In this document: positions 34,308 to 58,208 of the stretch, one piece after another
How the letters are laid out: each line of letters opens with the position of its first letter
Position numbering within the stretch: the first letter of the stretch is position 1
Source: a virus
Lineage: Duplodnaviria > Heunggongvirae > Uroviricota > Caudoviricetes
Length of the DNA stretch: 64,000 nucleotides
IMG/VR virus record: IMGVR_UViG_3300013902_000006
Direction: 5' to 3' (one strand)
Translations under genes and position numbers: made by a program
Notes under the pieces: generated by a model
Databases searched by the model: none
Seen by the model: only the letters and a program-made list of their open reading frames with translations
What the model was told of the DNA's origin: nothing

Positions 34308-35015
34308 TTGCATATGTCAAAAACAATTAAATGGGAATATATAAAGGGACTAGATCAGTATTTTGCTGATATAAAACACTTTAAGTCTCTCTCTCGTAAA
34401 GAAGAGAGAGAACTTGGTGTGCGTATAAAACAAGGTGACAAAGATGCCTTGAATAAATTGGTTCAACATAATCTTAAGTTCGTTGTTTCAATGGCGAAAA
34501 AATATCGTGATAAGGGTGTTCCATTTGAAGACTTAATATCCGAGGGCAACTTAGGACTTTATCACGCAGCCGAGAAATATGATGGTAGTCGTGAGACACG
34601 TTTTATTACTTATGCCGTATGGTGGATTAAAAATTCATTCAATGAGTGTATCAAGAGGAATGATAGAATCAATGAGATGGATATTGATGATTTCTTATGG
34701 GGTAAAAATAAAAGTGATACTTTTAGAACTGAAATAATAAATGAAAGATTCGAGGAACAGTTAAATGACATACAGAGTCGAAATGCAAGCATCAATGAAT
34801 TGATGGAATGTCTACAAGAACGTGAACGAAAAGTAGTTGCAATGTTCTTCGGTCTCGATGGAAAAAAGGAAATGAATCTTGATGAAATTGGACAAGATAT
34901 GAATTTATCAATGGAAAGGATAAGACAAATAAAAGATGTCGCCCTTATAAAATTAAAGACCAATGTATTGTTGATGAACAGTGATGAAATCCAAGAACTG
35001 AGAGAATTGCGTTAA
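34308..35015 (+). CDS. Sigma-70 family RNA polymerase sigma factor (regions 2 and 4)
   Basis: DLISEGNLGLYHAAEKYDGSRETRFITYAVWWIKNSF is a region 2.2-2.4 match. LDEIGQDMNLSMERIRQIKDVALIKLK is a region 4.2 HTH match. Confidence 0.75.
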   Translation: MHMSKTIKWEYIKGLDQYFADIKHFKSLSRKEERELGVRIKQGDKDALNKLVQHNLKFVVSMAKKYRDKGVPFEDLISEGNLGLYHAAEKYDGSRETRFITYAVWWIKNSFNECIKRNDRINEMDIDDFLWGKNKSDTFRTEIINERFEEQLNDIQSRNASINELMECLQERERKVVAMFFGLDGKKEMNLDEIGQDMNLSMERIRQIKDVALIKLKTNVLLMNSDEIQELRELR

Positions 35016-37880: not shown

Positions 37881-37934
37881 AAGAAATAAAAACTAAGTAA
37901 AATCATAATTTTTCTTAGAATTTTATATACGGTA
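37881..37934 (+). repeat. 54-bp exact direct repeat, copy 1 (copy 2 at 40458..40511)
   Basis: aagaaataaaaactaagtaaaatcataatttttcttagaattttatatacggta is identical at both positions. The repeat pair brackets the tRNA island and two ORFs. Confidence 0.9.
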
Positions 37935-38016
37935 CTCAAGTGGTTTAAGAGGACGGTCTTGAAAATCGTTAGCACTGTGATGAATGGTGGCGTGAGTCCG
38001 AATCTCACCCCCTCCG
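37935..38016 (+). pseudogene. 5'-truncated tRNA-Ser(TGA)-like pseudo-tRNA
   Basis: D-arm CTC/AAGTGGTTTAA/GAG, anticodon arm ACGGT-CTTGAAA-ATCGT, a long variable arm and T-arm GTGAG-TCCGAAT-CTCAC parallel E. coli tRNA-Ser. The 3' acceptor strand CCCCTCC has no complementary 5' strand. The body starts exactly at the end of repeat copy 1. Confidence 0.4.
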
Positions 38017-38025
38017 CAACCGAAT

Positions 38026-38113
38026 GGAAGACTAACCCTGATGGTGATGGGGGCATCCTGCTAAGATGTTTCGTTCGAGAAATTCGAATGTGGTTCGATT
38101 CCACAGTCTTCCT
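38026..38113 (+). tRNA. tRNA-Ser (anticodon GCT), type II
   Basis: Manual cloverleaf: acceptor GGAAGAC/GTCTTCC, D-stem CCC/GGG, anticodon stem GCATC/GATGT, loop CTGCTAA, variable arm TTCGA-GAAAT-TCGAA, T-arm TGTGG-TTCGATT-CCACA. No encoded CCA. Confidence 0.7.
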
Positions 38114-38398
38114 CAATTCAAAAGGTAGTATAGTTCAGTGGCAAAACACCCAAATCACAGGGATAAGAGATATGTCCAAATTGCGATTCACAATTAGATA
38201 CATATAAGTCTAAAAATAAAAATAGCAACAGAAATTATTATCGATTTCATAAATGATAATTTTTGACCTACGTCAAATAATCTATATAAAATGTGTGCGA
38301 ACACAATATTTTTAATATAATGTTTATATTTATTATTGAATAGAGAAAACCATATGATATGACTAAGCGAGATAATAAATAATATACCTATTAATTAA

Positions 38399-38881: not shown

Positions 38882-38954
38882 GTTTGATTCGCCCAGTTGG
38901 TAGGGCATTATTTTATGGTAATAACTGTCATCGGTTCGAGTCCGATATTAAACT
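38882..38954 (+). tRNA. tRNA with anticodon loop TTATGGT (apparent anticodon ATG, formally His)
   Basis: Acceptor GTTTGAT/ATTAAAC (one G-U), D-arm GCCC-AGTTGGTA-GGGC, anticodon stem TTATT/AATAA, T-arm ATCGG-TTCGAGT-CCGAT, 73 nt. A34 in the anticodon is unusual. Confidence 0.5.
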
Positions 38955-39088: not shown

Positions 39089-39161
39089 CGTGGCGTGGAG
39101 CAGTTGGTAGCTCAACAGACTCATAATCTGTAGGTCACTGGTTCGAGTCCAGTCGCCACCA
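39089..39161 (+). tRNA. tRNA-Met/Ile2 (anticodon CAT) with an unpaired C1-C72 and A11:U24
   Basis: Positions 2-7 GTGGCG pair with CGCCAC. D-arm GAGC-AGTTGGTA-GCTC, anticodon arm ACAGA-CTCATAA-TCTGT, T-arm ACTGG-TTCGAGT-CCAGT. No encoded CCA. Confidence 0.7.
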
Positions 39162-43381: not shown

Positions 43382-43401
43382 CAACAATAAATGGTAGAAC
43401 G

Positions 43402-44529: not shown

Positions 44530-44978
44530 TGAATTATAGTGCAGGAATTATACCATATCGAGTAAATGATGATGGTGAAATGGAATTTTTCGTAGGACAT
44601 CCTGGTGGTAATCATTGGAATAGTCGCTATTTGTGGATGTTCTTGAAGGGTGGTGTCGAAGGCAATGAGAATTGGTCTCAAACTGCGGTGCGAGAATTTG
44701 AGGAAGAGACAGGTTTGACCCTTACCGATGAAATGGTCAAGAGTTTGATACCATTGGGTAGCGTATTACAAAATAGTCATAAGACTACGATTGCATTCGG
44801 ATTACATTATCCTGATATTGATCCGAATACTTGCCATTCGAATTTGACAGACGACGGCAGTTGTTATGAGATTGATAGTTATCGTTGGATGACGTATGAT
44901 AAACTTAAGGAAGTCACACACAAGACACATCTCGGCTTCTATGACCAATTAATTACTTTGAATAATGCAACTTATTAA
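44529..44978 (+). CDS. Nudix hydrolase
   Basis: Nudix box GGVEGNENWSQTAVREFEEETGL (GX5EX7REUXEEXGU). Confidence 0.7.
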   Translation: MNYSAGIIPYRVNDDGEMEFFVGHPGGNHWNSRYLWMFLKGGVEGNENWSQTAVREFEEETGLTLTDEMVKSLIPLGSVLQNSHKTTIAFGLHYPDIDPNTCHSNLTDDGSCYEIDSYRWMTYDKLKEVTHKTHLGFYDQLITLNNATY

Positions 44979-45573
44979 GGATAAAGACCCTATTTTCTTT
45001 ACGGATGAATATGATGTTGTCTTGTTGGGAACATCTACAGCTTGTTCGCTCGCAAGTGGTTTTCAAGGAAAAATGGCAAGAAAATACCCATATGTCGATG
45101 AAGCGAATGACAAACAACCGTATCGTGATAATCGAAGACTTGGTAAACGTTTGACGTTGAAACAAGAAGGCAAGCCGACAATATCATTGATGTATATTAG
45201 TAAGTATAATGATAGTCGTAACGTGACTATCGACTATGAGGCGTTGACAAATTGTTTGACTACAGCAAATGCCGAATTCAAGGGAAAGAAAGTTATTACA
45301 ACAATTGTTGGGGCTACAAAAGTTGACGGCAATGGCGAACGTGACAAATGTCTTAAAATCTTGGAGGAATGTACGAAAGATCTTGATATTGACGTTTACG
45401 ATTATGAGCAACTTACATATTCGGAAGAATGTGCAAAAGTACTTAGACCGTTGACTGACAAATGGATAAAGGAGAACGTGAAAACGACAAAACAGCAAAG
45501 AATCGAGGAGAGAAAAAAAATATTGGAAAAGAATTATCTTAATAAAGTTTATTATGGCGGTGAAACCTACTAA
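44965..45573 (+). CDS. Hypothetical protein
   Basis: 202-aa ORF. Confidence 0.4.
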   Translation: MQLIKDKDPIFFTDEYDVVLLGTSTACSLASGFQGKMARKYPYVDEANDKQPYRDNRRLGKRLTLKQEGKPTISLMYISKYNDSRNVTIDYEALTNCLTTANAEFKGKKVITTIVGATKVDGNGERDKCLKILEECTKDLDIDVYDYEQLTYSEECAKVLRPLTDKWIKENVKTTKQQRIEERKKILEKNYLNKVYYGGETY

Positions 45574-46111
45574 TACAAGAAGCAATAAAAAATTAGACTA
45601 TAAGATTAACGAGGACATTCGTAATTATGATACTGTACGTGTAATCTATAAAGAACACAGTTCAGAGACGAGCGAGAATGATTTTAACCAAGTAATGTCC
45701 TTGTCCGAGGCAAAAAAGATATCAAGAGAAATGTCCCTTGACCTTATTGAAATCAATTCATCTGCGAATCCTCCTATTCTCAGATTGTGCGATTATTCCA
45801 AGTTCATATGGGAGCAGAAGAAAAGAGAGAAATCTCGTAACAAAAACACCACGACATTGAAGGAAATTCAATTGAAGGCAAATATCGCTGATAATGATTT
45901 GGAGACCAAGGCTCGGGCTGCATTGAAGTTTCTTGAAAATGGTTTTAAAGTAAAGGTCGTATTGACATTGCGAGGCCGTGAGAATGCAAGAAAAGAGTAT
46001 TCAAAGGGGGTATTTTATCGTTTTCTTGAACTTGTCGGTGATAATGCCGTATTTGAATTGAAACCTAAGGATGAAGGCAATAAGACCATTACGATAATTA
46101 GGAAAAAATAA
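45554..46111 (+). CDS. infC: Translation initiation factor IF-3 homolog
   Basis: N-domain VRVIYKEH...MSLSEAKKISREMSLDLIEINSSANPPILRLCDYSKFIWEQKK aligns with bacterial IF3 (VRLI...EAL.LA...[26 protein letters not shown]). C-domain KVKVVLTLRGRENARKEYS aligns with KAKITLRFRGREMAHQQ. Confidence 0.8.
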   Translation: MAVKPTNTRSNKKLDYKINEDIRNYDTVRVIYKEHSSETSENDFNQVMSLSEAKKISREMSLDLIEINSSANPPILRLCDYSKFIWEQKKREKSRNKNTTTLKEIQLKANIADNDLETKARAALKFLENGFKVKVVLTLRGRENARKEYSKGVFYRFLELVGDNAVFELKPKDEGNKTITIIRKK

Positions 46112-46128
46112 TTAAACACTTATGATAC

Positions 46129-46992
46129 ATGATTGTTGACTGTAAAACTCATAGTGGAAGATACATTAACTATACGGGGATAACTGAGGCATACATCAGA
46201 GATATAAGAAACTATGATGTAATAAGTCCTCAGGAACAGAAGAAACTTTTAAGATTAGCCCATAGTACCGACAATCAGGTTAAGCAGGAGGCAATAAATA
46301 AATTAATTCAATGTAATCAACGTTTTATTATATCATTTGCGAAGAAGTGGTCTCAAGGGAGTAATTTACTCGATATAGTAAACGAGGCAAATTTAGGCTT
46401 GTTGGAAGCAATCGAGAAATTTGATATTAATAGTAATAACAATTTTCTTACATATGCAGTATGGTGGATAAGGAAATACGTCAAGGATTATCATAATAGC
46501 TATGATAATATCGTAAAACGTCCCAATGCCAATAAACATAATTTGTATGTACCTAAAGCTAGGAGGTGGTTTGAAAACAAATATGATAGAGAACCCACCA
46601 ATGATGAATTGTTAGAAATCTTACGTAAGAAGTATAATTACCAAATTAGTGACCCAAGCGACCTTGATGAATTAAGACCTTATTCAATAGAAAATGATAA
46701 TGATGACAATGAATTAAATCTCTGTGAGACCGATAGACTTTTTAATGAAAAGACGGCTACTGATAATGTTAGTGATGGTATAAACAATGAATACACCAAA
46801 AGTTTTGTCGATTTTCTTTTAAGTAAGTTAGACGAAACAGAAAGAAATGTCATTACCAAGAATTATGGGATAGGTTGTCTCCCAAAGACAGTTGAGTCCA
46901 TTGCAGATGAAATGAACGTACCATCGTATAAGGTGAGAAGTATCTTAAAAAAAACACATAATAAATTAAAAAATTATGAAAATTTCAATTAA
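46129..46992 (+). CDS. Second sigma-70 family sigma factor (regions 2 and 4)
   Basis: DIVNEANLGLLEAIEKFDINSNNNFLTYAVWWIRKYV is a region 2 match. TVESIADEMNVPSYKVRSILKKTHNKLK is a region 4.2 match. Confidence 0.7.
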   Translation: MIVDCKTHSGRYINYTGITEAYIRDIRNYDVISPQEQKKLLRLAHSTDNQVKQEAINKLIQCNQRFIISFAKKWSQGSNLLDIVNEANLGLLEAIEKFDINSNNNFLTYAVWWIRKYVKDYHNSYDNIVKRPNANKHNLYVPKARRWFENKYDREPTNDELLEILRKKYNYQISDPSDLDELRPYSIENDNDDNELNLCETDRLFNEKTATDNVSDGINNEYTKSFVDFLLSKLDETERNVITKNYGIGCLPKTVESIADEMNVPSYKVRSILKKTHNKLKNYENFN

Positions 46993-47350
46993 ATTAACAG
47001 ACGAACACATCAAGCTTCTAAAGACATTGAGGTTTGAGAAAATAGATGAAAGACACTACGGTGTCGACAATTACGTATTGTGGGCTTGCGGACTGTCTTC
47101 CATATGGGAAGATATGGCAGCAATATTGGGTTATCAGGATAAAGTAATCGCTGAGACAAGGGAAGACCCTATGGGTGCAATCTGCGAAAAGGAAATACAG
47201 GAACACTTGGAAGAACTTGATGCCTTCTTTGTTGAACATATAACCGATATGGAGGAAATTTTACATCAGTTTTGTATGGTAGGAATTAAACCAGGGAAAT
47301 ATACTTGTCTTGACAACGTACATATATGGAAGTACGAGGGAGATAAGTAG
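46976..47350 (+). CDS. Hypothetical protein immediately downstream of sigma factor 2
   Basis: 124-aa ORF overlapping the sigma gene stop. Confidence 0.4.
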   Translation: MKISIKLTDEHIKLLKTLRFEKIDERHYGVDNYVLWACGLSSIWEDMAAILGYQDKVIAETREDPMGAICEKEIQEHLEELDAFFVEHITDMEEILHQFCMVGIKPGKYTCLDNVHIWKYEGDK

Positions 47351-47390
47351 ACGAAATAAGGTGTAGCATTTAAAATACTACACCTTAAAA

Positions 47391-47762
47391 TTATTTTTCA
47401 CGTAATAATTCATACAGTTTTGTTATTTCTTGGTCTGTGAAATGACGAACAACGCCGTCGGCATCTGGTTTACCTGTTGCCTTCTTTGAGAACAACGAAC
47501 GATAGGTGTCCTCTTCGCCCTTGTCACGTGGATGGTAAATATGCCTCATTAATTCGGCGTGGTTGAACTTGTCATCTTTAAGCATATTCATTACGGCTTT
47601 GCGTTTCATATCCACGTCATCATTCGCCTCAGAGATTATTTTATTCGTGTATTTATATACTTCTTCTTTCACGACATTTCGTACCTTGTTACGAATTATA
47701 GCTTCATTCATTTGTGAACGTAGCATATCATCTATTTGTCTTTTGATTGTCTCGTTTAACAT
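47391..47762 (-). CDS. Hypothetical protein (lone opposite-strand gene)
   Basis: 123-aa ORF with convergent/divergent neighbours and clean intergenic gaps. Confidence 0.4.
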   Translation of the reverse strand: MLNETIKRQIDDMLRSQMNEAIIRNKVRNVVKEEVYKYTNKIISEANDDVDMKRKAVMNMLKDDKFNHAELMRHIYHPRDKGEEDTYRSLFSKKATGKPDADGVVRHFTDQEITKLYELLREK

Positions 47763-47815
47763 GTGAAAATATCTTTTTTAATAAATAGTGATAAGTTCAA
47801 TTAAAATTTAAAAAT

Positions 47816-48289
47816 ATGACAGAAAAGGAACAACATTCTTATAGAATGTACTGCTTTGTGGAAAGACATCTATCACCTTTGGATAAAGGTATACAATCTG
47901 CTCATTCTATCGTGGAATATGGGAATTCTTATAGCGATACTGAAGAGTATTCCATATGGGCGAATAGGGATAAAACCATAATACTACTTAATGGCGGAAC
48001 TGTCAACGAATTAAAAGCTCTCGAATCTGATCTGGCAAGAAATGGCATTCATCGTTCTCTTTTTCTTGAAGAGGATTTGAATAACGCAATGACTTGCATC
48101 TCCGTATTGGTAGATGATAGAGTATTCGATAAAGTCAAATATCCTGATTTTCTCAGCGGGCATAGTGACGTAATGGCATTTATGTTCACGATGTCTAATG
48201 AAAAGTATGACGAGTGGTTGGAGAAAATAGGAGGTGAGAAAAATCGTTATCTCCGTGAATTATTAGGTAAATATCATTTGGCAAGATAA
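47816..48289 (+). CDS. Hypothetical protein
   Basis: 157-aa ORF. Confidence 0.4.
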   Translation: MTEKEQHSYRMYCFVERHLSPLDKGIQSAHSIVEYGNSYSDTEEYSIWANRDKTIILLNGGTVNELKALESDLARNGIHRSLFLEEDLNNAMTCISVLVDDRVFDKVKYPDFLSGHSDVMAFMFTMSNEKYDEWLEKIGGEKNRYLRELLGKYHLAR

Positions 48290-48295
48290 ATAAAT

Positions 48296-49111
48296 ATGGC
48301 AAATAACAGAGTATTTAAGCCAATTCGTTATTTTGGCTCGAAAGGCACATTTTATAATAAACTTCTCGAATATTTTCCACCGAAGGATAGCTATAATATG
48401 TATATTGAACCCTTCGGTGGCTCATACACAATGGGTTTGTCTGCGGATTTACCTGATAAGGTATGCGAGATTTATAATGATAAAGAACATAATGTGTATT
48501 CTTTGTATAAAGTATTATCAGATAAGGTACTTTTTAACGAATTCGAACGATTATGTAATTTAGCGACATATAACGAATATATGCGACAGAAATGCCGAGA
48601 GGAATTAAAGAAAGATGAACTTGACATTGTTTTAAGAGCATTTTATTTCTTCTATGTAAACCACACAAGCCATAACGGTGTGGGAGGATTTAGTATTAAT
48701 CCCATTATAAGAAGAGGAATGGCAAAGAGCGTGTCTGATATGCTGTCTTGTATTGATAGGTTACCCGAGTTACATCAAAGGCTAAGTCGAGTAATAGTTA
48801 CCAATAAGGACGGTATCGAATTAGTTAAGAAATATAATACGGAGAACGTTTTTCTGTATTTAGATCCTCCATATGTCCAATCTACGAGAACATCGGCAAG
48901 ATATGCTGAGGATATGGACGATGAGACTCACAAAAAACTTATTGATGCTTGTATTGCCTCTAAAGCAAAGATATTAATTAGTGGCTATGACAATCCATTG
49001 TATGATAAGTTACTTTCCAATGGATTTACAAAAAGTCAATTCGAGGTAAATACTATCAGTGGAGACAAAAGGCCAAAAGTAAAGGTCGAGACAATATGGA
49101 AAAATTATTAA
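48296..49111 (+). CDS. DNA N6-adenine methyltransferase, Dam/D12 class
   Basis: RYFGSKGTFYNKLLEYFP (motif X/I region), IEPFGGS (FxGxG) and LYLDPPY (motif IV DPPY). Confidence 0.75.
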   Translation: MANNRVFKPIRYFGSKGTFYNKLLEYFPPKDSYNMYIEPFGGSYTMGLSADLPDKVCEIYNDKEHNVYSLYKVLSDKVLFNEFERLCNLATYNEYMRQKCREELKKDELDIVLRAFYFFYVNHTSHNGVGGFSINPIIRRGMAKSVSDMLSCIDRLPELHQRLSRVIVTNKDGIELVKKYNTENVFLYLDPPYVQSTRTSARYAEDMDDETHKKLIDACIASKAKILISGYDNPLYDKLLSNGFTKSQFEVNTISGDKRPKVKVETIWKNY

Positions 49112-49155
49112 CATCTTTTAAGGAAAAATAATTTTGTTTATTGGAAATAATGTAG

Positions 49156-49163
49156 TACCTTTG
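49156..49163 (+). promoter_or_regulatory. -7 box TACCTTTG(CA) upstream of the lipoprotein gene
   Basis: TAnnTTTG match 30 nt before the ATG. Confidence 0.45.
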
Positions 49164-49192
49164 CACTCGTTAAACAAATAATAAATATTTCT

Positions 49193-50017
49193 ATGAGAAA
49201 AATTCTAATGTTTATGACACTATTGTTGGTGTCAATTTTAGGTTTCACCTCTTGTCATAGTGTATCACCAGATGCTGATGAGGAAGCCGTAATGGTGAAG
49301 AAACCTTGGTTCTTCGGTCACGGTGGTGTAGAGAAGGATGCTGTTCAGACAGGACTTACTTGGTGTTGGTGGTCAACAAGTGGCTATTATTTCAAAATTG
49401 TCCCAGTTCGTCATGAAATTGCCTTGGATGATTTGTTCAGTGACGATAATACACCTCTTGATTTCCACACGGTAATTATTACACAGATTGAGCAAGGTAA
49501 GTCACCAATTCTTTTGCAAAACTATGGCGAGAATTGGTTCGATACGAATCTCAACAATTATTTCTGTAACCTTGTTCGAGACCATATTTCACAACATAGT
49601 CCATTCGATTTGATGTCAAATCGTGCAGTACTTAATGATATTGACAATAAGATACGTCAGCAGATGCAGAATTATGTCGCAGCCTTGTCTAAAAAGAAGG
49701 AAATGCCTGTTATTATCAAGGAGGTTATCATTGGTAAGGCAACACCGAATAAAGAGCAGCTTAACGAAATGAATCGCACCGCAAAGGTGGTACAAGCAAA
49801 ACAGACACAAGAGCGTGAATATGAGGTACAGATCGCTCGTGAGAAAGCTGAGAGACAGAAGGCGAAGGCTGATAAGGCGTATATGGAGGAAATGAATCTT
49901 TCTGCTGGACAATTCATTAATTTGAAATGGATTGAGACCGTTGCCAATAAGCAAGGCGCAAACATCGATGTTCTTGTAGGAGGAGGAAGTGACCCGATTT
50001 GGAATATTAAACGATAA
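49193..50017 (+). CDS. Lipoprotein (lipobox LGFTSC) with an SPFH/band-7-like C-terminal region
   Basis: Signal peptide MRKILMFMTLLLVSILGFTSC. Charged helical C-terminus QAKQTQEREYEVQIAREKAERQKAKADKA resembles HflK/C-type SPFH proteins. Local GC content is noticeably higher than in flanking phage genes. Confidence 0.5.
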   Translation: MRKILMFMTLLLVSILGFTSCHSVSPDADEEAVMVKKPWFFGHGGVEKDAVQTGLTWCWWSTSGYYFKIVPVRHEIALDDLFSDDNTPLDFHTVIITQIEQGKSPILLQNYGENWFDTNLNNYFCNLVRDHISQHSPFDLMSNRAVLNDIDNKIRQQMQNYVAALSKKKEMPVIIKEVIIGKATPNKEQLNEMNRTAKVVQAKQTQEREYEVQIAREKAERQKAKADKAYMEEMNLSAGQFINLKWIETVANKQGANIDVLVGGGSDPIWNIKR

Positions 50018-50052
50018 ATTATTTTAAACTTAAATAAATTAAATTTTAAAAA

Positions 50053-51153
50053 ATGAAAAAGTTTATTTTTATGATTATGGCTGCCTTGTGCAGCATCGTG
50101 ACGGCCTCAGCACAGTCACAGAGTAATTACAGTGGAAGTTCAAAGTTTTTTGATAACACATCAGTAGGTGTTGTCGGTGGCGTAGAAACCAACCTTCACG
50201 ATTGGAATGCCCCACAGGGTGCTGTCGCAGGAATCCTTTTGAATAAGGAGATTACCCCTATTTTTGGTGTAACACTTGAGGGTAATACAAACATCAACGG
50301 TCTCCGAAATTGGGAGAGTAAGGCATCCCATTCTTGTGGCGCAAAGGTATTTGATGCCTTTAGTGTTTATCTTACACCACGAGTAAATTTGTCGAATGCA
50401 TTGTTCGGTTATAAGGTCAATTCTCGAAAGTTTGAAGTTGAAGCTCTCGCAGGTCTTGGTTACGGAGCTTTCCTATACGACAATACTCATAATGCATTGC
50501 TTGCCAAAGCGGGACTCAATTTCAATTATAATCTGAGTAAGGCATTTACTGTAATGCTTCGTCCTGCGGTTATTTATGATTTGTCGGCAACTAATGTGAA
50601 GTTTGACTCACGTAGTGCTGTCGCACAACTGACAGTAGGTGTCACATATCATTTTAAGACCTCAAATGGCACACGTTCATTTAATAAGGCAAAGCTTTAT
50701 AATCAGTCTGAAATTGACGCTCTTAATGCAAAGATTGCTGACTTGCAGTCAAGCCTCGAAGCAGCAAATAAGGTGGCTAAGACAAATGCAATCAATACAG
50801 TAGATACTGTCTATGTAGAGAGTTCATCTTCATTGGGCAATGTTGTATCATTCAAACTTAATAGTTCAAAGGTCGATGAAACACAGATGGCAAATCTTGA
50901 CAATGCAGTACGTATGTTGAAGGAGAATACTGACTTGAAAGTTACTTTGAAGGGCTATGCTGATAAGAATACTGGTAGCGCATCCTATAACAAGAGATTG
51001 TCAGTTCGCCGTGCTGAGGCTGTGAAGAAGGTTATTGTTAATAAGTATGGCATCGATCCTGACCGTATCGATGTGCTTGGTGTTGGTGATACTGAGCAGC
51101 TTTATTCAGATAACAATTGGAATCGTGTTGTAATTTTTGTTGAGAACAAGTAA
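50053..51153 (+). CDS. OmpA-family outer-membrane protein (signal peptide + C-terminal OmpA peptidoglycan-binding domain)
   Basis: Signal MKKFIFMIMAALCSIVTASAQ. C-terminus VTLKGYADKNTGSASYNKRLSVRRAEAVKKVIV...DRIDVLGVGDTEQ matches the OmpA_C motif. Higher GC than the surroundings. Confidence 0.75.
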   Translation: MKKFIFMIMAALCSIVTASAQSQSNYSGSSKFFDNTSVGVVGGVETNLHDWNAPQGAVAGILLNKEITPIFGVTLEGNTNINGLRNWESKASHSCGAKVFDAFSVYLTPRVNLSNALFGYKVNSRKFEVEALAGLGYGAFLYDNTHNALLAKAGLNFNYNLSKAFTVMLRPAVIYDLSATNVKFDSRSAVAQLTVGVTYHFKTSNGTRSFNKAKLYNQSEIDALNAKIADLQSSLEAANKVAKTNAINTVDTVYVESSSSLGNVVSFKLNSSKVDETQMANLDNAVRMLKENTDLKVTLKGYADKNTGSASYNKRLSVRRAEAVKKVIVNKYGIDPDRIDVLGVGDTEQLYSDNNWNRVVIFVENK

Positions 51154-51179
51154 ATGAACGTATCTAATTAAATTTAATT

Positions 51180-51225
51180 CTTACCATAATGTTGTTACAT
51201 TACAATATTTTGGTAAGAATTTTCT
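51180..51225 (+). terminator. Compound hairpin TTCTTACCA...TGGTAAGAA after the ompA-like gene
   Basis: 9-bp inverted repeat enclosing a second small palindrome. T-rich downstream. Confidence 0.4.
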
Positions 51226-51242
51226 TTTTAAAATAATGTATA

Positions 51243-51626
51243 ATGGCTGAAATAATAAGATATTGTTTAACAAGTGAGGAGCATGATGGTGAAAATGTTT
51301 TTAAAGTTTGCCGTCCTAATATAATGGGGAATCCATTCACATTTCTTCCTAAAAGTAAATCTAAGTTTAAAAATTTAATAAAGGTAAAAACAAGGGATGA
51401 AGCAATTGATCTGTATGAACCTTATTTCGATGTGATGATAAAGAAAGACAAGAGATTTAAGGAAGAATGGGATAAAATGTTCAATGCGTATCTTAAATAT
51501 GACACCGTATATATTGGATGTTTTTGCGGGAAGGGAGAAAGATGCCACGGTGACATAATAGCCAAGAAGTTAAAACAAAGGGCAATCAAGCAAATGCTCA
51601 AGAATTTGGATATCATGAAAGATTAA
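51243..51626 (+). CDS. DUF4326-like protein (CxC...CHGD motif)
   Basis: CFCGKGERCHGDIIAKKL resembles the conserved C..C..CHgDvL core of DUF4326 phage proteins. Confidence 0.35.
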   Translation: MAEIIRYCLTSEEHDGENVFKVCRPNIMGNPFTFLPKSKSKFKNLIKVKTRDEAIDLYEPYFDVMIKKDKRFKEEWDKMFNAYLKYDTVYIGCFCGKGERCHGDIIAKKLKQRAIKQMLKNLDIMKD

Positions 51627-51946
51627 CGTAAATTTTTACAAAAGAAAGGATTATCTTTTAAAGAATATATCATATTTTCGTAATATTTGCAGGTAGTCGA
51701 AAAGTTATCGACATCAGTTTGCGACAATTCAAACCATTCGTTCATTATTCTGCAATGTCTGAAATGATTATGAATCAATGTTTCCATTCGATACATATAA
51801 TCTGTTGTGTATGTTCCTTTGACAGTCAAAATAGAGGAATTACCTGTCTGTAAATTTTTCAGCCTTTTATCGACGCTATTCTTAGTAATCCCGATTTTAT
51901 ACCTTTCGTTTTCCTCGTCAAATATCAAGTAAATATTCCCTCTCAT
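51623..51946 (-). CDS. GIY-YIG superfamily (T5orf172/MUG113-type) small nuclease-like protein
   Basis: NIYLIFDEENERYKIGITKNSVDKRLKNLQTGN matches the T5orf172 pattern (IY.I.....YKIG.T....RL..L.TGN). Lone minus-strand gene. Confidence 0.5.
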   Translation of the reverse strand: MRGNIYLIFDEENERYKIGITKNSVDKRLKNLQTGNSSILTVKGTYTTDYMYRMETLIHNHFRHCRIMNEWFELSQTDVDNFSTTCKYYENMIYSLKDNPFFCKNLR

Positions 51947-52045
51947 AAGTTAAATTATCTTCTTACCTTAATATAGGTCTTAATATTATACATTTCAATT
52001 AAGAACCTTTAACTATTAATATTTGGTAATAATAAAATATATTAG

Positions 52046-52053
52046 TATCTTTG
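52046..52053 (+). promoter_or_regulatory. -7 box TATCTTTG(CA)
   Basis: TAnnTTTG match 31 nt upstream of a 57-aa ORF. Confidence 0.4.
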
Positions 52054-52084
52054 CATACATAAAGGAATAATTTATTAAATATTA

Positions 52085-52258
52085 ATTAAAACTATGGATA
52101 GTAAAGATTTACAAAAACTAACCGATGCCATCAAGGGGAATACCAAGGCATTGGAGAAATACACTTCGTTAGTCGATAAGCAGAATCAAAAGATAGATGC
52201 TTTGACTATTGCCATCAGTGAGTTGAAGACAACAATTAAAGGTAATCCAAACGATTAA
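52085..52258 (+). CDS. Small coiled-coil protein (57 aa, below the ORF-track cutoff)
   Basis: ORF encoding MDSKDLQKLTDAIKGNTKALEKYTSLVDKQNQKIDALTIAISELKTTIKGNPND with a canonical promoter upstream. Confidence 0.3.
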   Translation: MKTMDSKDLQKLTDAIKGNTKALEKYTSLVDKQNQKIDALTIAISELKTTIKGNPND

Positions 52259-52270
52259 TAAAATAAAATA

Positions 52271-52477
52271 ATGGACAAGAAATTTTGTGCTATACACCGT
52301 CTTTATTATCAAGGTCATGAGTGTCCTTTGTGTCTTAGTGAACGAGTAAGTTATTATGACCGTAAGTATAACGGTAAAACCGAGGATGTCAAAGAGAAGA
52401 AGTCATCCAAGAAAGTAGACAGAGAGATTAATAAAGACGATATTTCTAAATTAATGGAAAAATTCAATAAAAAGTAA
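52271..52477 (+). CDS. Small zinc-ribbon protein (C..H....C..C)
   Basis: CAIHRLYYQGHECPLC motif. 68 aa, translationally coupled to the next gene. Confidence 0.35.
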   Translation: MDKKFCAIHRLYYQGHECPLCLSERVSYYDRKYNGKTEDVKEKKSSKKVDREINKDDISKLMEKFNKK

Positions 52478-53796
52478 TGAAAAAATATACATTTGAAGAT
52501 ATCAGAAAGAAGGGACTCCTTCTTTATGAGTTCGTGAGGGGTTCTGTTAGTCAGGGAATAAACACCCTTTCCTCAGATGAAGATCACGGTGGCGTATATA
52601 TGGCACCAGCGGAACAATTGTTAGGTCTTGGGTTTGACTATCAAGATGAAATAAAGGATGCCAAGGGTGATGACGACTGGATGGAACTCAATAAGTTTAT
52701 GCGACTATTGTTGAAGTCAAATCCGACTGTCTTGGAAAGTTTGTTTGTTGATGACAAGTATGTCCTATATGAGCATCCTATTATGACAGAAATTAAGAAA
52801 CATCGTAATGAATTTGTTACAAAGGAATGTTTTGATGCTTTTTTCGGCTACGCAAAATCACAGGTACACAAGGCACGAGGACTTAATAAAAAGATTGTTC
52901 AACCTATTGTAGAACGTAAGACAGTTCTTGATTTCTGTTATACATTTTATAAGCAAGGTAGCACAAAGATTGAAAATTGGCTTGACTATCGTGGTTTGAA
53001 ACAGAAATATTGTGGTCTTGTAAATATTCCTAATATGATAGAGACAATAGGAGTATATTATGATTGGGGTAATCATTTTCTTAATGAGAACATTCATATC
53101 GAGGAATTATACCGGGCATACGACAATATTGGTATATATTCAACGACCGATATCATAACAAAGATGAAAAAGACTACTGATGATGGTGAAAAATTAAAGT
53201 TAGAAGAAGACTTGAAAAAATGCCATATGTGTAATATGGTTGAATTCATAATGGATTTTTATCATCTTGACGATATGTTTGCTTTACGTGATTGGTATCA
53301 TGAACAAAGACCGATCGGTTATAAGGGTATTGTGAACGAAAAAGGTACATCTAATGAATTACGTCTATCATCGGTGGCAAAGGATGAGAAACCAGTGTGT
53401 TATATGACGTACAATAAGAATGCTTTTAGTAGCCATTGTAAAGATTACAAGGAATATAAAGATTGGGAGAAGAATCGTAATCCCGTCCGTTATGAAAGTA
53501 ATTTAAATAAGAACTATGACGCAAAGAATATGGCCCATAGTTTTCGTTTAGTTAATATGGGTATCGAAATTGCAAAGGGTGAAGGTGTTAAAGTCGATAG
53601 GATGAATATTGACCGTGATTTTCTTTTGGCAATCCGTAAACATCAATATGAATATGATGAATTAATTAACAAATTAGAGGAAAAGGTAAAGGAAATGGAT
53701 GAAGCTGTTAAGCGAACATCTCTTCCTGATAAAATTGATATAAATAGAGTCAATGACTTACTTCTTCAGATACGTAAAAAGCAATTACATTTATGA
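52477..53796 (+). CDS. Pol-beta superfamily nucleotidyltransferase of unknown specificity
   Basis: RGSVSQGINTLSSDEDHGGVY fits the minimal NTase motif GS-x(9-13)-DhDh. Translationally coupled to the CCA-adding enzyme. Confidence 0.45.
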   Translation: MKKYTFEDIRKKGLLLYEFVRGSVSQGINTLSSDEDHGGVYMAPAEQLLGLGFDYQDEIKDAKGDDDWMELNKFMRLLLKSNPTVLESLFVDDKYVLYEHPIMTEIKKHRNEFVTKECFDAFFGYAKSQVHKARGLNKKIVQPIVERKTVLDFCYTFYKQGSTKIENWLDYRGLKQKYCGLVNIPNMIETIGVYYDWGNHFLNENIHIEELYRAYDNIGIYSTTDIITKMKKTTDDGEKLKLEEDLKKCHMCNMVEFIMDFYHLDDMFALRDWYHEQRPIGYKGIVNEKGTSNELRLSSVAKDEKPVCYMTYNKNAFSSHCKDYKEYKDWEKNRNPVRYESNLNKNYDAKNMAHSFRLVNMGIEIAKGEGVKVDRMNIDRDFLLAIRKHQYEYDELINKLEEKVKEMDEAVKRTSLPDKIDINRVNDLLLQIRKKQLHL

Positions 53797-55181
53797 CAAA
53801 AGATAAATTTTTAGAAATCTGCTATTACCTAAAACATATCCTCAATGGTAGTGACTTCGTTAGTCACACGTATGTTGTCGGTGGTGCCGTCCGTGATTTC
53901 GTAATGGGTAATGAGATAAAGGATATTGACCTTGTAGTTTCATTACCTTCCGGAGGTATTAATTTGGCAAATTGGTTATATAATAATGATTTCCTGATTT
54001 ATAAACCGGTACTGTATCCTACATATGGCACTTCAATGTTTCAATTGAAGGAATTTCCTAATATTGAATTGGAAGCTGTTCAGACAAGAAAAGAACAGTA
54101 TAAGGATAAGAATAGCCGTAATCCTGAAACAGCTTATGGTACTATACAAGAGGACGCAATGCGTCGTGATTTAACGATTAATGCCCTCTATTATAGTCTG
54201 AACAATGGAAAAATAGTGGATGTTACCGGCAAAGGTCTTAATGACATCGAGAAACATATCATTAGAGTCACATCTGATCCTGATACGGTCTATCAAGATG
54301 ATGCTCTTCGAATCCTTCGTTGTATACGCTTCAGTTCAAGGTTTGGATGGAAAATCAGTGAAAGTACTTTTACGGGAATGGTTAAAAATGTCGATAGATT
54401 GGAGATTATAACAAAGGAACGTGTGCAGGATGAATTGAATAAAATGCTTTTGACAAAACAGCCATCGATGGCATTAAATTTAATTAAATCTATTGGTGCA
54501 ATGAAATATGTTATACCAGAATTGGAAATGACATATAATATTCGTCAAAATAAATACCACGATTATAATACGGTATGGGAACATACGATGATGGTATTGG
54601 ACAATTCGAGACCTAAACTTGAGCTTAGGGTCGCAGCATTGCTACATGACATTGGTAAATGTAAGACAGAAACCCATGATGAAGATGATACAGTGCATTT
54701 TTATCGTCACGAATTAGTTTCATCTGATATGTGCGATACCGTTTTAAGGAGACTGAAGTATTCAAATGATTTCATCCGTAAGGTTCAATTTATGATTAAG
54801 AATCATATGAGGACAAAGCAATTCGGTGACGATTTGGGGTTGATGAAGACAAAATCTTTACTTAAGCTTGAATATGAACTTGGTGATAATTTTGATGACT
54901 GTCTCGATTTGATAGATGCGGATAATCTATCACATGGTAAGGAGTATTGTATGCCTAATCAGGTTAAAAACATTCGTCAAAAAGTAAAGGAGCTTGAAAT
55001 ACAAGGCATTTCAATGTTCGGTTATCGTCTGCCTATTGATGGCAATGATGTAATGGAGACTTTGGATATTCCCCCATCATCAAAAGTAAAGGACTGTCTT
55101 AAATGGGCAATGAAATTCGTTTACAACAAGCCAAAAATTACAAGGGACGAACTTTTAAAACAGATTAAACAATTTCGATAA
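53793..55181 (+). CDS. cca: tRNA nucleotidyltransferase (CCA-adding enzyme) with an HD domain
   Basis: VVGGAVRDFVMGNEIKDIDLVV head motif, LRILRCIRFSSRFG neck and LLHDIGK HD motif. Confidence 0.8.
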   Translation: MTKDKFLEICYYLKHILNGSDFVSHTYVVGGAVRDFVMGNEIKDIDLVVSLPSGGINLANWLYNNDFLIYKPVLYPTYGTSMFQLKEFPNIELEAVQTRKEQYKDKNSRNPETAYGTIQEDAMRRDLTINALYYSLNNGKIVDVTGKGLNDIEKHIIRVTSDPDTVYQDDALRILRCIRFSSRFGWKISESTFTGMVKNVDRLEIITKERVQDELNKMLLTKQPSMALNLIKSIGAMKYVIPELEMTYNIRQNKYHDYNTVWEHTMMVLDNSRPKLELRVAALLHDIGKCKTETHDEDDTVHFYRHELVSSDMCDTVLRRLKYSNDFIRKVQFMIKNHMRTKQFGDDLGLMKTKSLLKLEYELGDNFDDCLDLIDADNLSHGKEYCMPNQVKNIRQKVKELEIQGISMFGYRLPIDGNDVMETLDIPPSSKVKDCLKWAMKFVYNKPKITRDELLKQIKQFR

Positions 55182-55378
55182 TTGGAAAAGAAAAAATAAA
55201 AGGATTACATTATATATTGGAAAAATTTCGGCTGATGAAATGTAAGGGGATTCGCCCTTTGAGTACAGCTCTTCATGAAGATGTAAGTTATGGCAATAAG
55301 GAAGAAGATTGAAAAGCCGACAGGAAATGACAAAGAAATGCAATATTCAAATAATCGATAATTTTTAATAAAACGGAT

Positions 55379-55840
55379 ATGATAAATAACAAGATTGATG
55401 AAATGATTGCGTCAGCACTCAAAAATAGAGAGACTGACTTGTTAAATGTCTTGAAATTAATCAAGACCGAATTCGTTAATGCAATACATAATAAAGTCGA
55501 ATTGGATGAAGCAAATGAAGTAAAGATACTTCTTAAGATGGCTTCACAGAGAGAAGATTCCATTCAACAGTACATTAAGGGAGGAAGAAACGACTTGGCA
55601 GAGTTGGAGAAGAAAGAACTTGAGATAATAAAATCATATACCCCTAAGCAAGCATCCGATGAGGAGATAGCTGAGTATACAAGTGGCGTTATAACTGCGT
55701 ACATTGTTTCAAAAGGAGAAGGTTATATTCTTTCAATGAAAGATATGAAACCTATTATGGCATCCGTTAAGGAAAAGTACCCTAATGCGAACGGAAAGGT
55801 TGTTTCTATGACTTTGAATAAAGTAATCAATAATAAGTAA
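55379..55840 (+). CDS. YqeY/GatB-domain protein
   Basis: Aligns along its length with E. coli YqeY (ALKNRETDLLNVLKLIKTEFVN..QREDSIQQYIKGGRNDLAELEKKELEIIKSYTP versus [55 protein letters not shown]). Confidence 0.6.
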   Translation: MINNKIDEMIASALKNRETDLLNVLKLIKTEFVNAIHNKVELDEANEVKILLKMASQREDSIQQYIKGGRNDLAELEKKELEIIKSYTPKQASDEEIAEYTSGVITAYIVSKGEGYILSMKDMKPIMASVKEKYPNANGKVVSMTLNKVINNK

Positions 55841-55847
55841 GAGTAAT

Positions 55848-56057
55848 ATGGAAGACAGAGTATATCCTTATTTAGGAAGGAACAAGATAGATGGTAAAGA
55901 CATCGTTGTATTGTTCACTGATGAAGACTGCGGTGTCGTCGTAATGAGTGAGTTCGACAAGGGAAGTAAGTTCGCCTTTGGAAAGTATCTTGAAAATTTT
56001 GCTGAGGAGCAGTTTGAGGTTTTACCTCCTGATTTGCAAGTAAGCCTCAGCAATTAA
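55848..56057 (+). CDS. Hypothetical small protein
   Basis: 69-aa ORF. Confidence 0.3.
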   Translation: MEDRVYPYLGRNKIDGKDIVVLFTDEDCGVVVMSEFDKGSKFAFGKYLENFAEEQFEVLPPDLQVSLSN

Positions 56058-56065
56058 TGATTTTT

Positions 56066-56095
56066 AACGGAGGATTTTATAATTCTCCGTTTTTT
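56066..56095 (+). terminator. Rho-independent terminator (ACGGAGGA..TTCTCCGT + T6)
   Basis: Hairpin followed by TTTTTT and immediately followed by a -7 box. Confidence 0.55.
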
Positions 56096-56100
56096 ATTCG

Positions 56101-56108
56101 TACCTTTG
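56101..56108 (+). promoter_or_regulatory. -7 box TACCTTTG(CA)
   Basis: TAnnTTTG match. The ORF-track start at 56106 lies inside this box, so the real start is probably ATG 56136 (MKEWKYKP). Confidence 0.45.
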
Positions 56109-56135
56109 CATAGAAATAAAATAAATAAAAACCTT

Positions 56136-57107
56136 ATGAAAGAATGGAAATATAAGCCTTTGGCACAACGTTTCGTCAGCGACTATAAGTTACCGATACC
56201 GATAATTACTGAGAAGATATTTAATTTTCATCTAAAAAAATATGAAGAGAAGTATAAGTCGTTGACTAAATGGAACGAACTCTTGAAATTGATAACAGAC
56301 AAATTTGACAGCAACTTTAATAAGTTCCTTGATGATTATTATCAAATTAGGGATAATATTATAATGACTGTCTTGAACAGCGAGGCGTTTAAGAAGTTTA
56401 ACACAATGCCAATAGATTGTTACAATTTCAAGAATGAGGAATCGATAACTTCGAATAATATTTACAACCAATCAAACGTAAGCAAGAAGTTTGTATCAAT
56501 TGATTTGAAAAAAGCGAATTTCCAAATATTGCGCAAAGTAGATAAGGATATTGTATTAGGTGCTGATACTTATGAGGATTTCATAGGTAATTTCACTAAT
56601 CTTGACTATATTAAGGAAAGTAAGTATACAAGACAAGTACTCTTTGGTAAAATGAATCCAAAGCGTCACATTAAAGTCGAAAAGTATTATACTTATCTGA
56701 TGTATAAGTTGCTTGAAATATATGCCAAATCACACGATTGGAAGATAGTTTCATTAAATAGTGATGAAATTGTTTATGAGACACCTAATTCCTATTGCGA
56801 GATTGATTACATCGCTGAAACAATAAAGGAAAAACTGGATTTGATAGTACACGTAGAACTGTTTATACTCAACGGATATACGTTTTCGACAAAAGATAGT
56901 GAACATCACAAGGTGGATTTTTATGTGAAGAAGAATTTAATAAACGGTGAAGAGAAAATGGTATCGGTTCCATTGCCTTATCATTCGTTGATATATTCTT
57001 TGTATAATAAAGAAAAACCTTCCGAAATGGATTACCACTTTAATTATGAGGGTTATGACTGTATTTTTAATGAAGAATTTGAAATAAAGGGGATTGAAAA
57101 TGGATAA
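56136..57107 (+). CDS. Hypothetical protein (start re-assigned from 56106)
   Basis: 323-aa ORF with its start moved downstream of the promoter box. Confidence 0.45.
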   Translation: MKEWKYKPLAQRFVSDYKLPIPIITEKIFNFHLKKYEEKYKSLTKWNELLKLITDKFDSNFNKFLDDYYQIRDNIIMTVLNSEAFKKFNTMPIDCYNFKNEESITSNNIYNQSNVSKKFVSIDLKKANFQILRKVDKDIVLGADTYEDFIGNFTNLDYIKESKYTRQVLFGKMNPKRHIKVEKYYTYLMYKLLEIYAKSHDWKIVSLNSDEIVYETPNSYCEIDYIAETIKEKLDLIVHVELFILNGYTFSTKDSEHHKVDFYVKKNLINGEEKMVSVPLPYHSLIYSLYNKEKPSEMDYHFNYEGYDCIFNEEFEIKGIENG

Positions 57108-58176
57108 TTTTGATAACGAGATGTTTGGCTTTGATGATATAACTAATGTCGTGTTCTTTTCGTCGGGTGATTTCGGAATACCTACCCTTAAAGCGTTAAT
57201 CGAGAACGAAAAGTACAATGTGAAAGGTGTTGTTACTTCGAATGATAAGGCGGTTTACAATGACAAGAGAATTGCTGATATAGCAGATGCAAATGGTATC
57301 CCTTGTTGCATTCCTTCCAACGATGACGAATTGTATTATTTTTTGGAAAATATAAAAGATGATAAGTCTGATTTCGGTAATAACTTGTATTATTGTGTTA
57401 TTTCATATAAGAAATTAAGCGATAGGATACTGTCATTAGTTGACGGTAGGGCAATGAATGTACATGCTTCGATTTTGCCTTTCCTTCGTGGTGCGGCACC
57501 TATCAATTGGGCAATTAGATTAGGTTTTAAAGAGACAGGTTTAACAGCGTTTAAATTATCCGATAAAATTGATCGTGGAGATATAATTAACAGTATGTTT
57601 GTTAATATAAACGATGATGAAACTTATGACAGTCTCTTCAAGAAGTTGTCTGATAAATGCGTAGATTTTACGATGGGTTCACTTAATATATTCCGTCTTG
57701 TGTCCATAACAAGTCAACGTATAGGCCGACAACCGAATATAGGTGTTAAACGTGATATATTGGTTGCCCCTAAAATCACAAAGAAATATTGGGATGGGTG
57801 GCTTAGGCTGTCGATGGAAGAGATAGATAGATTGTTCAAATCGACTTCTAATGGATTGCCTTGCAAAATATATGTGATTGATGACAGCAAGAATACCCAA
57901 TGTGATGTACTTAATGCAAAGATATGGGATTATGAATTTATCTCTAATTTTGAAGATGGAAGTGAAGGGGTAAATTGGTATCCAACTGAATGCGATGGAA
58001 AAACCTACATAAGGGTTGCCTTTGGAGACCAAGTAGAAAAAGTATTGTTAATCAAGGAAATCCAATTGGAAGGCAGGAAACGAATGTATATTGAGGATTT
58101 TTTGCGTGGTTTTAAGTATACTCGTAATAATAAGGACAATTACCGATTGGTAATTTCATCTGATATAAGTGAATAA
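57094..58176 (+). CDS. Formyltransferase, closest to methionyl-tRNA formyltransferase (Fmt)
   Basis: N-terminus VVFFSSGDFGIPTLKALIENEKYNVKGVVTSNDK resembles Fmt [32 protein letters not shown]. Catalytic HASILPFLRGAAPINWAIRLGFKETGLTAFKLSDKIDRGDII versus Fmt [42 protein letters not shown]. Confidence 0.55.
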   Translation: MKMDNFDNEMFGFDDITNVVFFSSGDFGIPTLKALIENEKYNVKGVVTSNDKAVYNDKRIADIADANGIPCCIPSNDDELYYFLENIKDDKSDFGNNLYYCVISYKKLSDRILSLVDGRAMNVHASILPFLRGAAPINWAIRLGFKETGLTAFKLSDKIDRGDIINSMFVNINDDETYDSLFKKLSDKCVDFTMGSLNIFRLVSITSQRIGRQPNIGVKRDILVAPKITKKYWDGWLRLSMEEIDRLFKSTSNGLPCKIYVIDDSKNTQCDVLNAKIWDYEFISNFEDGSEGVNWYPTECDGKTYIRVAFGDQVEKVLLIKEIQLEGRKRMYIEDFLRGFKYTRNNKDNYRLVISSDISE

Positions 58177-58208
58177 TTAACTTTGTAAATATAATATATC
58201 TTAATAAA

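Follow-up and report, generated by a model that had tools for sequence, protein, structure and literature searches.

A predicted Met-tRNA formyltransferase, IF3, and an initiator-type tRNA encoded by a gut jumbo phage

The described systems closest to the one treated here are the translation genes of huge and jumbo phages with genomes of >200 kb. IF1, IF3, CCA-adding enzymes, and peptide deformylase are known from huge phages (Al-Shayeb et al. 2020, PMC7162821) and RlaP, CCA-adding enzymes, Pth2, and IF3 from jumbo phages (Iyer et al. 2021, PMC7824862), and these phage genes have been read as redirecting or maintaining host translation and as serving RNA repair (PMC7162821, PMC7824862). Here, we analyzed a 64-kb stretch of phage DNA with 34% G+C (IMG/VR record IMGVR_UViG_3300013902_000006, in the following referred to as the window) with respect to its genes for an Fmt-family formyltransferase, the initiation factor IF3, and an initiator-type tRNA with the anticodon CAU (tRNA-CAU). 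In terms of IF3, CCA-adding enzyme, RlaP, a possible Pth2, tRNA array, chaperones, and sigma factors, this phage resembles the published examples; in contrast to them, Fmt belongs here to the conserved core genes of a single clade, one member of which carries an initiator-type tRNA. The word “formyl” is absent from both publications, PHROGs contains only a PurN-like family and no full-length Fmt family, and our literature searches returned no report of a phage Fmt. Phage IF3, CCA-adding enzymes, and RlaP are already published; what appears to be unreported is Fmt, along with its occurrence together with an initiator tRNA. A related case is the peptide deformylase of cyanophages (Frank et al. 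2013, as cited in PMC7162821), likewise a phage enzyme of the formylmethionine (fMet) cycle that is thought to sustain translation; the deformylase takes the opposite step and removes the formyl group. Peptide deformylase motifs were found in none of the six reading frames of the window.

In the reading that we favor, with a rough probability of 0.6, these genes serve a self-supply: throughout long infections of Bacteroidales hosts, the phage itself would provide functions in translation initiation and tRNA maintenance. A conserved phage Fmt beside IF3 across an abundant gut-phage clade would extend phage translation control to the making of fMet-tRNA. If the genes merely top up host functions, their description would still be a useful annotation of a widespread, hitherto undescribed clade of gut jumbo phages.

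The Fmt-like formyltransferase

Based on Pfam, NCBIfam, a family profile, and AF2/Foldseek comparisons, the product of 57094..58176 (plus strand) is assigned as a full-length, divergent member of the Fmt family and thus a predicted Met-tRNA formyltransferase. Pfam recognizes both domains, Formyl_trans_N (PF00551) with 65.2 bits and Formyl_trans_C (PF02911) with 25.1 bits at a cut-off of 21.1. Among the NCBIfam models, TIGR00460 (fmt) fits best, with an alignment that covers positions 2-307 of 315, and the same model is the best one for 18 out of 18 Fmt-family members, the strongest of them reaching only an E value of 9.5e-45. Within these 18 sequences the catalytic residues N122, H124, and D160 are invariant and the motif HASLLPFLRGAAPI is invariant or nearly so. 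The phage family furthermore shares the motif HASILPFLRGAAPI in the formyltransferase N domain, a conserved HAS(L/I)LP-RGAAPI stretch, and an Fmt-like C-terminal motif, IQLxGKKxMxxxEFLRGF (Q-x-GKK-x-M...F-x-G-F). Of these, RGAAPI and the C-terminal GKK...F..G are regarded as typical of Fmt. Translation probably starts at the ATG at position 57100, as it does in the homologue P0001 with 94% identity.

Alignment of the family profile with Fmt crystal structures extended over both domains, through approximately residue 306 (4iqf, 1.3e-42; 1fmt/2fmt, 3.2e-34), while ArnA, PurN, FDH, and sugar formyltransferases were matched in the N domain only (ArnA 4e-25, the others weaker). With the C domain present, this bears out the original prediction, made from the sequence of the window without database searches, that the formyltransferase is closest to Fmt. 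The AF2 model (pLDDT 84) retrieved Fmt chains as top Foldseek matches (8e-24, TM 0.75), with ArnA and FDH close behind (1.7e-18). The fold alone is not decisive, since a similar C-terminal subdomain is also found in ArnA and FDH.

In comparison to the bacterial enzyme (E. coli Fmt, PDB 1FMT/2FMT; TIGR00460), the phage protein has the two domains, the N/H/D triad, the SLLP-RGAAPI stretch, and the C-terminal GKK in common. It differs by an identity of only ~22-28%, by an extra N-terminus of ~15 residues and insertions in the C domain, and by its coupling to a gene with a polymerase-like fold. The latter (56136..57107, plus strand) encodes a 323-amino-acid protein of no known family with a polymerase-like palm/fingers fold; its 3' end overlaps the start of the Fmt gene, and it is positioned directly upstream of Fmt also in the relatives L002/L003, L005, and L010. 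Furthermore, the TIGR00460 score of 112.3 bits lies under the curated equivalog cut-off of 201.5. It is by loop 1 (residues 34-49 in E. coli, including Arg42; 2FMT complex) that Fmt recognizes the acceptor end of the initiator tRNA together with its 1:72 mismatch. In the phage enzyme this loop is shorter by 5 residues and has no GRG and SPVK motifs, the conserved K52 and a second lysine still being present. As a consequence of the shortened loop and the missing motifs, the substrate specificity could differ.

These deviations allow for an enzyme formylating another amine, e.g., a non-Met aminoacyl-tRNA, a nucleotide-sugar, or a modified base, maybe together with the coupled polymerase-fold protein. 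Such a function would fit the score below the fmt cut-off, the ArnA-like length of loop 1 with its GRG and SPVK motifs lost, the Foldseek proximity of the ArnA and FDH hydrolase domains, which share the same two-domain fold, and the conservation of the overlapping partner gene. However, TIGR00460 outperforms every other model for all 18 family members, an alignment over both domains is obtained with Fmt structures alone, the RGAAPI and GKK...F..G motifs presumably mark Fmt, and the neighboring genes encode tRNA enzymes. We therefore consider a substrate other than Met-tRNA very unlikely.

A tblastn search of the phage Fmt against INPHARED returned 17 full-length matches, all with ≤32% identity. 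These belong to unannotated metagenomic “Bacteriophage sp.” records, multi-contig “phage” assemblies, or fmt of Salmonella whole-genome shotgun data, and none was confirmed as the Fmt of a cultured phage. A back-translated pattern search for the phage Fmt in IMG/VR gave no match.

IF3 and the initiator-type tRNA-CAU

The 185-amino-acid product of 45554..46111 (plus strand) can be classified as a true IF3 orthologue on the basis of Pfam, TIGR00168, PDB matches, and a family alignment. It contains IF3_N (PF05198, 8.5e-18, residues 18-94) and IF3_C (PF00707, 4.5e-23, residues 101-185), joined by the Lys-rich basic linker QKKREKSRNKN, and scores 121.8 bits with TIGR00168 (infC), above the equivalog cut-off of 60. 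IF3 chains of ribosome structures in the PDB were matched with an E value of 2.8e-24. Across 17 family members, R29, G141, and R142 are invariant, E143 of the GRE motif is nearly so, and the position equivalent to E. coli R66 is R or K; E. coli numbering, including R29 as the R25 equivalent and the R66 and Q33 sites, was mapped by our own alignment. The gene and the C-domain residues of the originally predicted IF3 were thus recovered. Its supposed rarity in phages was not, as 102 phage records match IF3 and PHROGs includes an IF3 family. A back-translated IF3 pattern search of IMG/VR recovered one relative only, L001.

Domain architecture, linker, R29, the R/K at R66, and GRE are common to the phage protein and bacterial IF3 (infC, TIGR00168). 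In contrast to the latter, the phage gene has an ATG start and resides in a sigma-adjacent phage array, and its product carries an insertion of ~8 residues within the first N-domain hairpin. This insertion is found in members 46-100% identical to the window protein and is absent from more distant ones. According to our mapping it is flanked by the counterparts of R25 and Q33, two residues by which E. coli IF3 touches the elbow of the initiator tRNA and which influence fidelity; mutation of elbow-contact residues leads to more initiation with a 3GC-mutant tRNA and at AUU and AUA (PMC9723500). By its position between these contacts, the insertion could mean an altered instead of a standard proofreading.

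The tRNA-CAU gene (39089..39161, plus strand, no encoded CCA) was called by ARAGORN and by Rfam (65.4 bits) and was classified as initiator-type by comparison of its D-arm. Re-reading of the sequence confirmed what had been noticed originally, i.e., the unpaired C1xC72, A11:U24, and the lack of the G:C triplet. The anticodon stem ACAGA/UCUGU pairs as A27:U43, C28:G42, A29:U41, G30:C40, and A31:U39, so that of the three consecutive G:C pairs of initiators (29:41, 30:40, 31:39) only G30:C40 is kept (au/GC/au). Both 1:72 and 11:24 had been proposed as determinants recognized by Fmt and IF3; this stands for Fmt and does not hold for IF3, which probes the anticodon stem and the elbow of the tRNA.

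In order to obtain bacterial reference tRNAs, we searched one genome per bacterial species with the 19-mer GTGGAGCAGTTGGTAGCTC of the window D-arm, so that the reference genes, at least 120 loci with 122 tRNA genes, were chosen by sharing this arm; the following counts refer to the matches listed. All 122 genes with the D-arm GTGGAGCAGTTGGTAGCTC have the anticodon CAU, and 1:72 is unpaired in all but two of them (CxA 49, UxU 39, CxU 25, CxC 5, U1:A72 2, others 2). Due to this exclusive association, the D-arm can be regarded as diagnostic of initiators, and CxC at 1:72 falls, by these counts, within the natural range of Bacteroidota and neighboring groups. Three G:C pairs in the anticodon stem are found in 97 and two in 25 of the genes. 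A CCAGG/CCTGG stem (A29:U41, G30:C40, G31:C39) is present in 20 genes, almost all from genomes of Prevotella, Segatella copri, Bacteroidaceae, and Dysgonomonadaceae.

Compared with the initiator of S. copri, tRNA-CAU shows 81% identity with 14 differences, 13 of these located in stems. Nevertheless, 20 out of 21 stem pairs are intact, five pairs having been changed on both sides in a compensatory manner, and the loops are the same except for nucleotide 26. Intact stems, compensatory changes, and unchanged loops indicate selection for a working tRNA rather than decay. Judged by this comparison, tRNA-CAU is derived from a Bacteroidales-type initiator tRNA, and D-arm, S. copri identity, and compensatory pairs together make a stronger case than the “initiator-like” tRNA initially proposed.

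Reduced G:C runs have precedents. The natural initiators of mycoplasma and rhizobia have au/GC/GC, GC/GC/gu, and au/GC/gu stems (Shetty et al. 2017, PMC5389676), and tRNA-CAU shares with these unconventional initiators the possession of fewer than three G:C pairs and a G30:C40 kept between purine:pyrimidine pairs. It differs from them by its au/GC/au stem, by being phage-borne, and by CxC instead of CxA at 1:72. For E. coli, G30:C40 has been reported as sufficient, as has G30 on its own in context, and growth was sustained by au/gu/au; au/GC/au itself is not listed among the stems sustaining initiation (PMC5389676). With G30:C40 as the essential element and even au/gu/au sustaining E. coli, the au/GC/au stem is plausibly functional in initiation. 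The tRNA would thereby represent a natural, evidently selected initiator-type tRNA with the middle G:C pair only, and a test system for the requirements for three G:C pairs and for IF3 proofreading, and it may become a source of parts for orthogonal initiation in synthetic biology.

Initiator-type tRNAs are not rare on viral contigs, being present on at least 120 IMG/VR contigs, many with weakened G:C runs; among the matches listed, fewer than three G:C pairs are present in 74 of the 119 parsed. Part of the contigs may represent the ends of prophages. The au/GC/au stem was also observed on two unrelated IMG/VR contigs (L181, 6901-6974; L220, 3329-3402). A scan of IMG/VR with a pattern of acceptor stem plus anticodon returned four loci, of which only L009, on the contig of L001, was relevant; the other three (L006-L008) were without a tRNA call and were dismissed.

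At the same site, relatives carry CAU tRNAs of other types. The tRNA at the end of the island of L001 (C1xU72) shares the acceptor stem with the window tRNA and has an elongator-type D-arm, the one of L010 has U1.G72, that of L011 has G1:C72 and C11:G24, and L133 contains only a degenerate copy. Such variation, together with an island in flux that contains tRNA remnants at 38118-38160 and 38783-38855, would be expected if tRNA-CAU were a captured host initiator drifting to A/T and decaying, in line with two G:C pairs turned into A:U in a genome of low G+C content, or else an elongator Met tRNA or a lysidine-modified, AUA-reading Ile tRNA. Contrary to this expectation, the stems are maintained by compensatory double changes, the loops are unchanged apart from the nucleotide mentioned, and the D-arm is exclusive to initiators among the genes listed. 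In addition, the 1:72 mismatch is kept, which disfavors binding of EF-Tu. A leftover or elongator tRNA is thus an improbable explanation of the gene.

The shortened loop of Fmt, the insertion of IF3, and the weakened stem of tRNA-CAU could also be taken together. Co-adapted, the three components might relax or redirect proofreading and thereby favor phage mRNAs or unusual start codons, a re-tuned or semi-orthogonal initiation. This would make sense of an insertion between the equivalents of elbow contacts whose mutation alters fidelity (PMC9723500), of a loop 1 that is short throughout the Fmt family, of the loss of two of the three G:C pairs inspected by IF3 and 16S rRNA, and of the phage sigma factor that always adjoins IF3. 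However, in relatives with the same IF3 insertion the CAU tRNA is of another type or has decayed, and IF3 retains R29 at the position of E. coli R25 as well as its linker and GRE motif. The initiators of the likely host group (Prevotella/Bacteroidaceae) are already au/GC/GC, so that with A29:U41 in the hosts the phage tRNA goes just one pair further. Moreover, 42 of the 49 predicted genes of the window start with ATG. Re-tuning is therefore considered unlikely. A more far-reaching version, to which we assign only a small chance, is a partly private initiation channel, in which the hairpin-inserted IF3, the short-loop Fmt, and, in some members, a tRNA with G30:C40 only would let phage mRNAs initiate when initiation by the host is shut off or its initiator tRNA comes under attack. 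If true, this would amount to a natural case of a minimal “1GC” initiator tRNA acting in concert with a matched pair of IF3 and Fmt.

Conserved gene arrays and self-supply of initiation functions

The genes described above had been regarded as a single toolkit within 13 kb. They resolve into two separately conserved arrays, with unrelated genes (DNA methyltransferase, Band_7, OmpA, DUF4326, GIY-YIG) in between.

The first array is centered on IF3. On the plus strand, it comprises DnaJ (43402-44529), a NUDIX protein (44529-44978, Pfam NUDIX), a phosphatase-like protein of 202 amino acids (44965-45573; phrog_335 “phosphatase”, no Pfam match), IF3, and, adjoining it downstream, a sigma-70 family factor (46129..46992; Pfam Sigma70_r2 and r4). 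The ends of the DnaJ, NUDIX, and 202-amino-acid genes overlap each other, and the last of these overlaps the start of IF3 by 20 nucleotides. The order (DnaK)-DnaJ-NUDIX-~200 amino acids-IF3-sigma is kept at 47-82% IF3 identity (L010-L012, L133-L135). Directly upstream of IF3, the 202-amino-acid protein is found in most relatives, too. In most of L010, L011, L012, L133, and L135, a DnaK (HSP70, ~645 amino acids) lies between an FtsH-like protease and DnaJ; the window (42774-43402) and L001 have just an open reading frame of 157-174 amino acids in this position.

The second array, centered on tRNA functions, lies ~6 kb further along, likewise on the plus strand, and starts with an RlaP-family (RNA-repair) nucleotidyltransferase (52477..53796; PF10127, 68.2 bits; phrog_388). 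Its stop overlaps by 4 nucleotides the start of a class II CCA-adding-type tRNA nucleotidyltransferase with HD domain (53793..55181; Pfam PolyA_pol, PolyA_pol_RNAbd, and HD), so that the two are translationally coupled, in agreement with the predicted CCA enzyme coupled to a second nucleotidyltransferase. The best NCBIfam model of the CCA-type enzyme is TIGR02692 (231 bits, cut-off 438.8), with PcnB models scoring lower. YqeY (GatB/YqeY-type) follows at 55379..55840, and the anticipated domain was found over residues 4-145 (PF09424, 99.5 bits at a cut-off of 27; phrog_1460). The arrangement RlaP-CCA-YqeY-small open reading frame(s)-~320 amino acids-Fmt is maintained in relatives whose Fmt is 51% and 39% identical, is looser in L004, and was not seen as a CCA-YqeY-Fmt block within the fetched locus of L012. 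IF3 and Fmt are located on one locus in L010. In L012, the arrangement is broken up by an IS605 OrfB/TnpB (Cas12f-like) gene that was noted directly after RlaP on the opposite strand (16370-17704).

As IF3 and Fmt remain syntenic while the type of the CAU tRNA shifts, these two genes cannot depend on tRNA-CAU. Conserved synteny on the one hand and a variable tRNA on the other mark IF3 and Fmt as clade-level core genes and the initiator-type tRNA as a lineage-specific addition.

The composition of the second array also bears on a counter-defense role, in which the RlaP-CCA-YqeY-...-Fmt block, the possible Pth2, and downstream genes of relatives would repair or protect toxin-attacked tRNAs, with Fmt and the spare tRNA guarding the initiator pool. 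Toxins can target initiator tRNA; the threats could include VapC-type cleavage of tRNAfMet and acetylation of Met-tRNAfMet by GNAT toxins. In favor of this role, RlaP, the CCA-adding enzyme, and Fmt belong to a single conserved block, genes for HD+AAA_33, an Rv2179c-like exoribonuclease, and Metallophos are found within 10 kb in L002/L003, and RtcB is near IF3 in L135. Iyer et al. cite the cleavage of initiator tRNA by VapC and read RlaP, CCA-adding enzymes, and Pth2 of jumbo phages as RNA repair versus host nucleases (PMC7824862). On the other side, no toxin, ligase, or kinase was shown in the window itself, the material retrieved contained no Bacteroidales defense system targeting initiator tRNA, and co-location with repair genes is equally expected under plain self-supply. 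We thus judge counter-defense to be a rather remote explanation for the presence of these genes.

The favored self-supply of initiation and tRNA-maintenance functions would operate as follows. During a long infection with host gene expression shut down, phage IF3 would keep 30S subunits available and proofread initiation, while phage Fmt would formylate the Met-tRNAfMet of the host as well as that of the phage itself, with the unpaired C1xC72 and A11:U24 serving as formylation determinants. The CCA enzyme would add the 3' end, an obvious task as no tRNA gene of the island encodes CCA, and together with RlaP it would repair damaged tRNA ends. The extra initiator tRNA would raise the initiator supply, its G30:C40 between two purine:pyrimidine pairs being near the E. 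coli minimum. All of these genes would sustain the ordinary Shine-Dalgarno-independent initiation of Bacteroidota and create no new kind of initiation. Several points weigh against this reading: the sub-cut-off score and the altered loop 1 of Fmt, the hairpin insertion of IF3, and the indirect assignment of the host. Furthermore, the initiator-type tRNA is not conserved among the relatives, and its contribution may for this reason be marginal or transient.

Phage clade, host, and neighboring features

Besides DnaJ, an FtsH-like protease, and several DNA methyltransferases, the products of the window include a DnaB-like helicase, NrdD, baseplate-wedge proteins, and an SbcC-like nuclease. Two sigma factors had been noted, and both are real sigma-70 family genes, the first one being located at 34308..35015 (profile match) and the second one adjoining IF3. 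The set of helicase, NrdD, baseplate, nuclease, sigma, and protease genes identifies the window as part of a large tailed phage. A megablast search of window positions 45000-58500 against 50,697 deposited phage records gave zero matches, showing the clade to be absent from the deposited phages. Homologues of window proteins are found on metagenomic contigs of 180-392 kb, and the 279-kb IMG/VR contig of L001 is syntenic with the window. The source of the window is a jumbo myophage belonging to a large gut-metagenome clade with contigs of ~280-390 kb.

In respect to the host, GGAG is found within 20 nucleotides upstream of none of the 49 predicted gene starts, and the leaders are A/T-rich. Initiation in Bacteroidota is independent of Shine-Dalgarno sequences, and A/T-rich leaders without GGAG would suit such hosts. 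The lack of a Shine-Dalgarno-like motif in combination with the Prevotella-type initiator tRNA points to Bacteroidales, so that the host is probably a member of Prevotella/Bacteroidales. A 356-kb contig of IMG/VR, L149, carries an initiator tRNA of the Prevotella type; in the piece fetched from it, the only gene in common with the window was a D12 methyltransferase.

Downstream of the IF3 array, 47816..48289 (plus strand) encodes a protein of 157 amino acids, possibly a Pth2-like peptidyl-tRNA hydrolase (archaeo-eukaryotic type) of the kind described in other jumbo phages. It matches phrog_3668 “hydrolase” with 8.5e-24 and Pfam PTH2 with an E value of 0.028, its L001 orthologue reaching 0.0015, both of them below the cut-off, and a phmmer search of the protein against the PDB gave no match. 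The gene was observed to be confined to the closer relatives. A T5orf172/GIY-YIG-type gene on the minus strand (51623-51946), placed beside the DUF4326 gene in relatives, too, is likely a homing-endonuclease-like element inside the region.

The tRNA island, on the plus strand, starts with a tRNA-like sequence at 37931..38010 (Rfam 31.7 bits, E 5e-4), which has a long variable arm and the anticodon loop CUUGAAA (Ser-UGA type) and received no call by ARAGORN. It is followed by a tRNA-Ser (GCU) at 38026..38114 (ARAGORN and sequence; no encoded CCA) and a tRNA with the anticodon AUG (“His”) at 38882..38954 (ARAGORN; Rfam 52.2 bits; no encoded CCA), the anticodon stem of which consists of A and U only. 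The anticodon AUG is not normally used. One of the two remnants in the island is Gly-UCC-like with a broken acceptor stem. Overall, the island looks to be under erosion; L001 contains 10 intact tRNAs in the same place. Beside its CAU tRNA, L010 carries a tRNA with the anticodon CUA (607-680; amber suppressor, labeled Pyl by ARAGORN), which hints at the use of TAG as a sense codon in some members of the clade.

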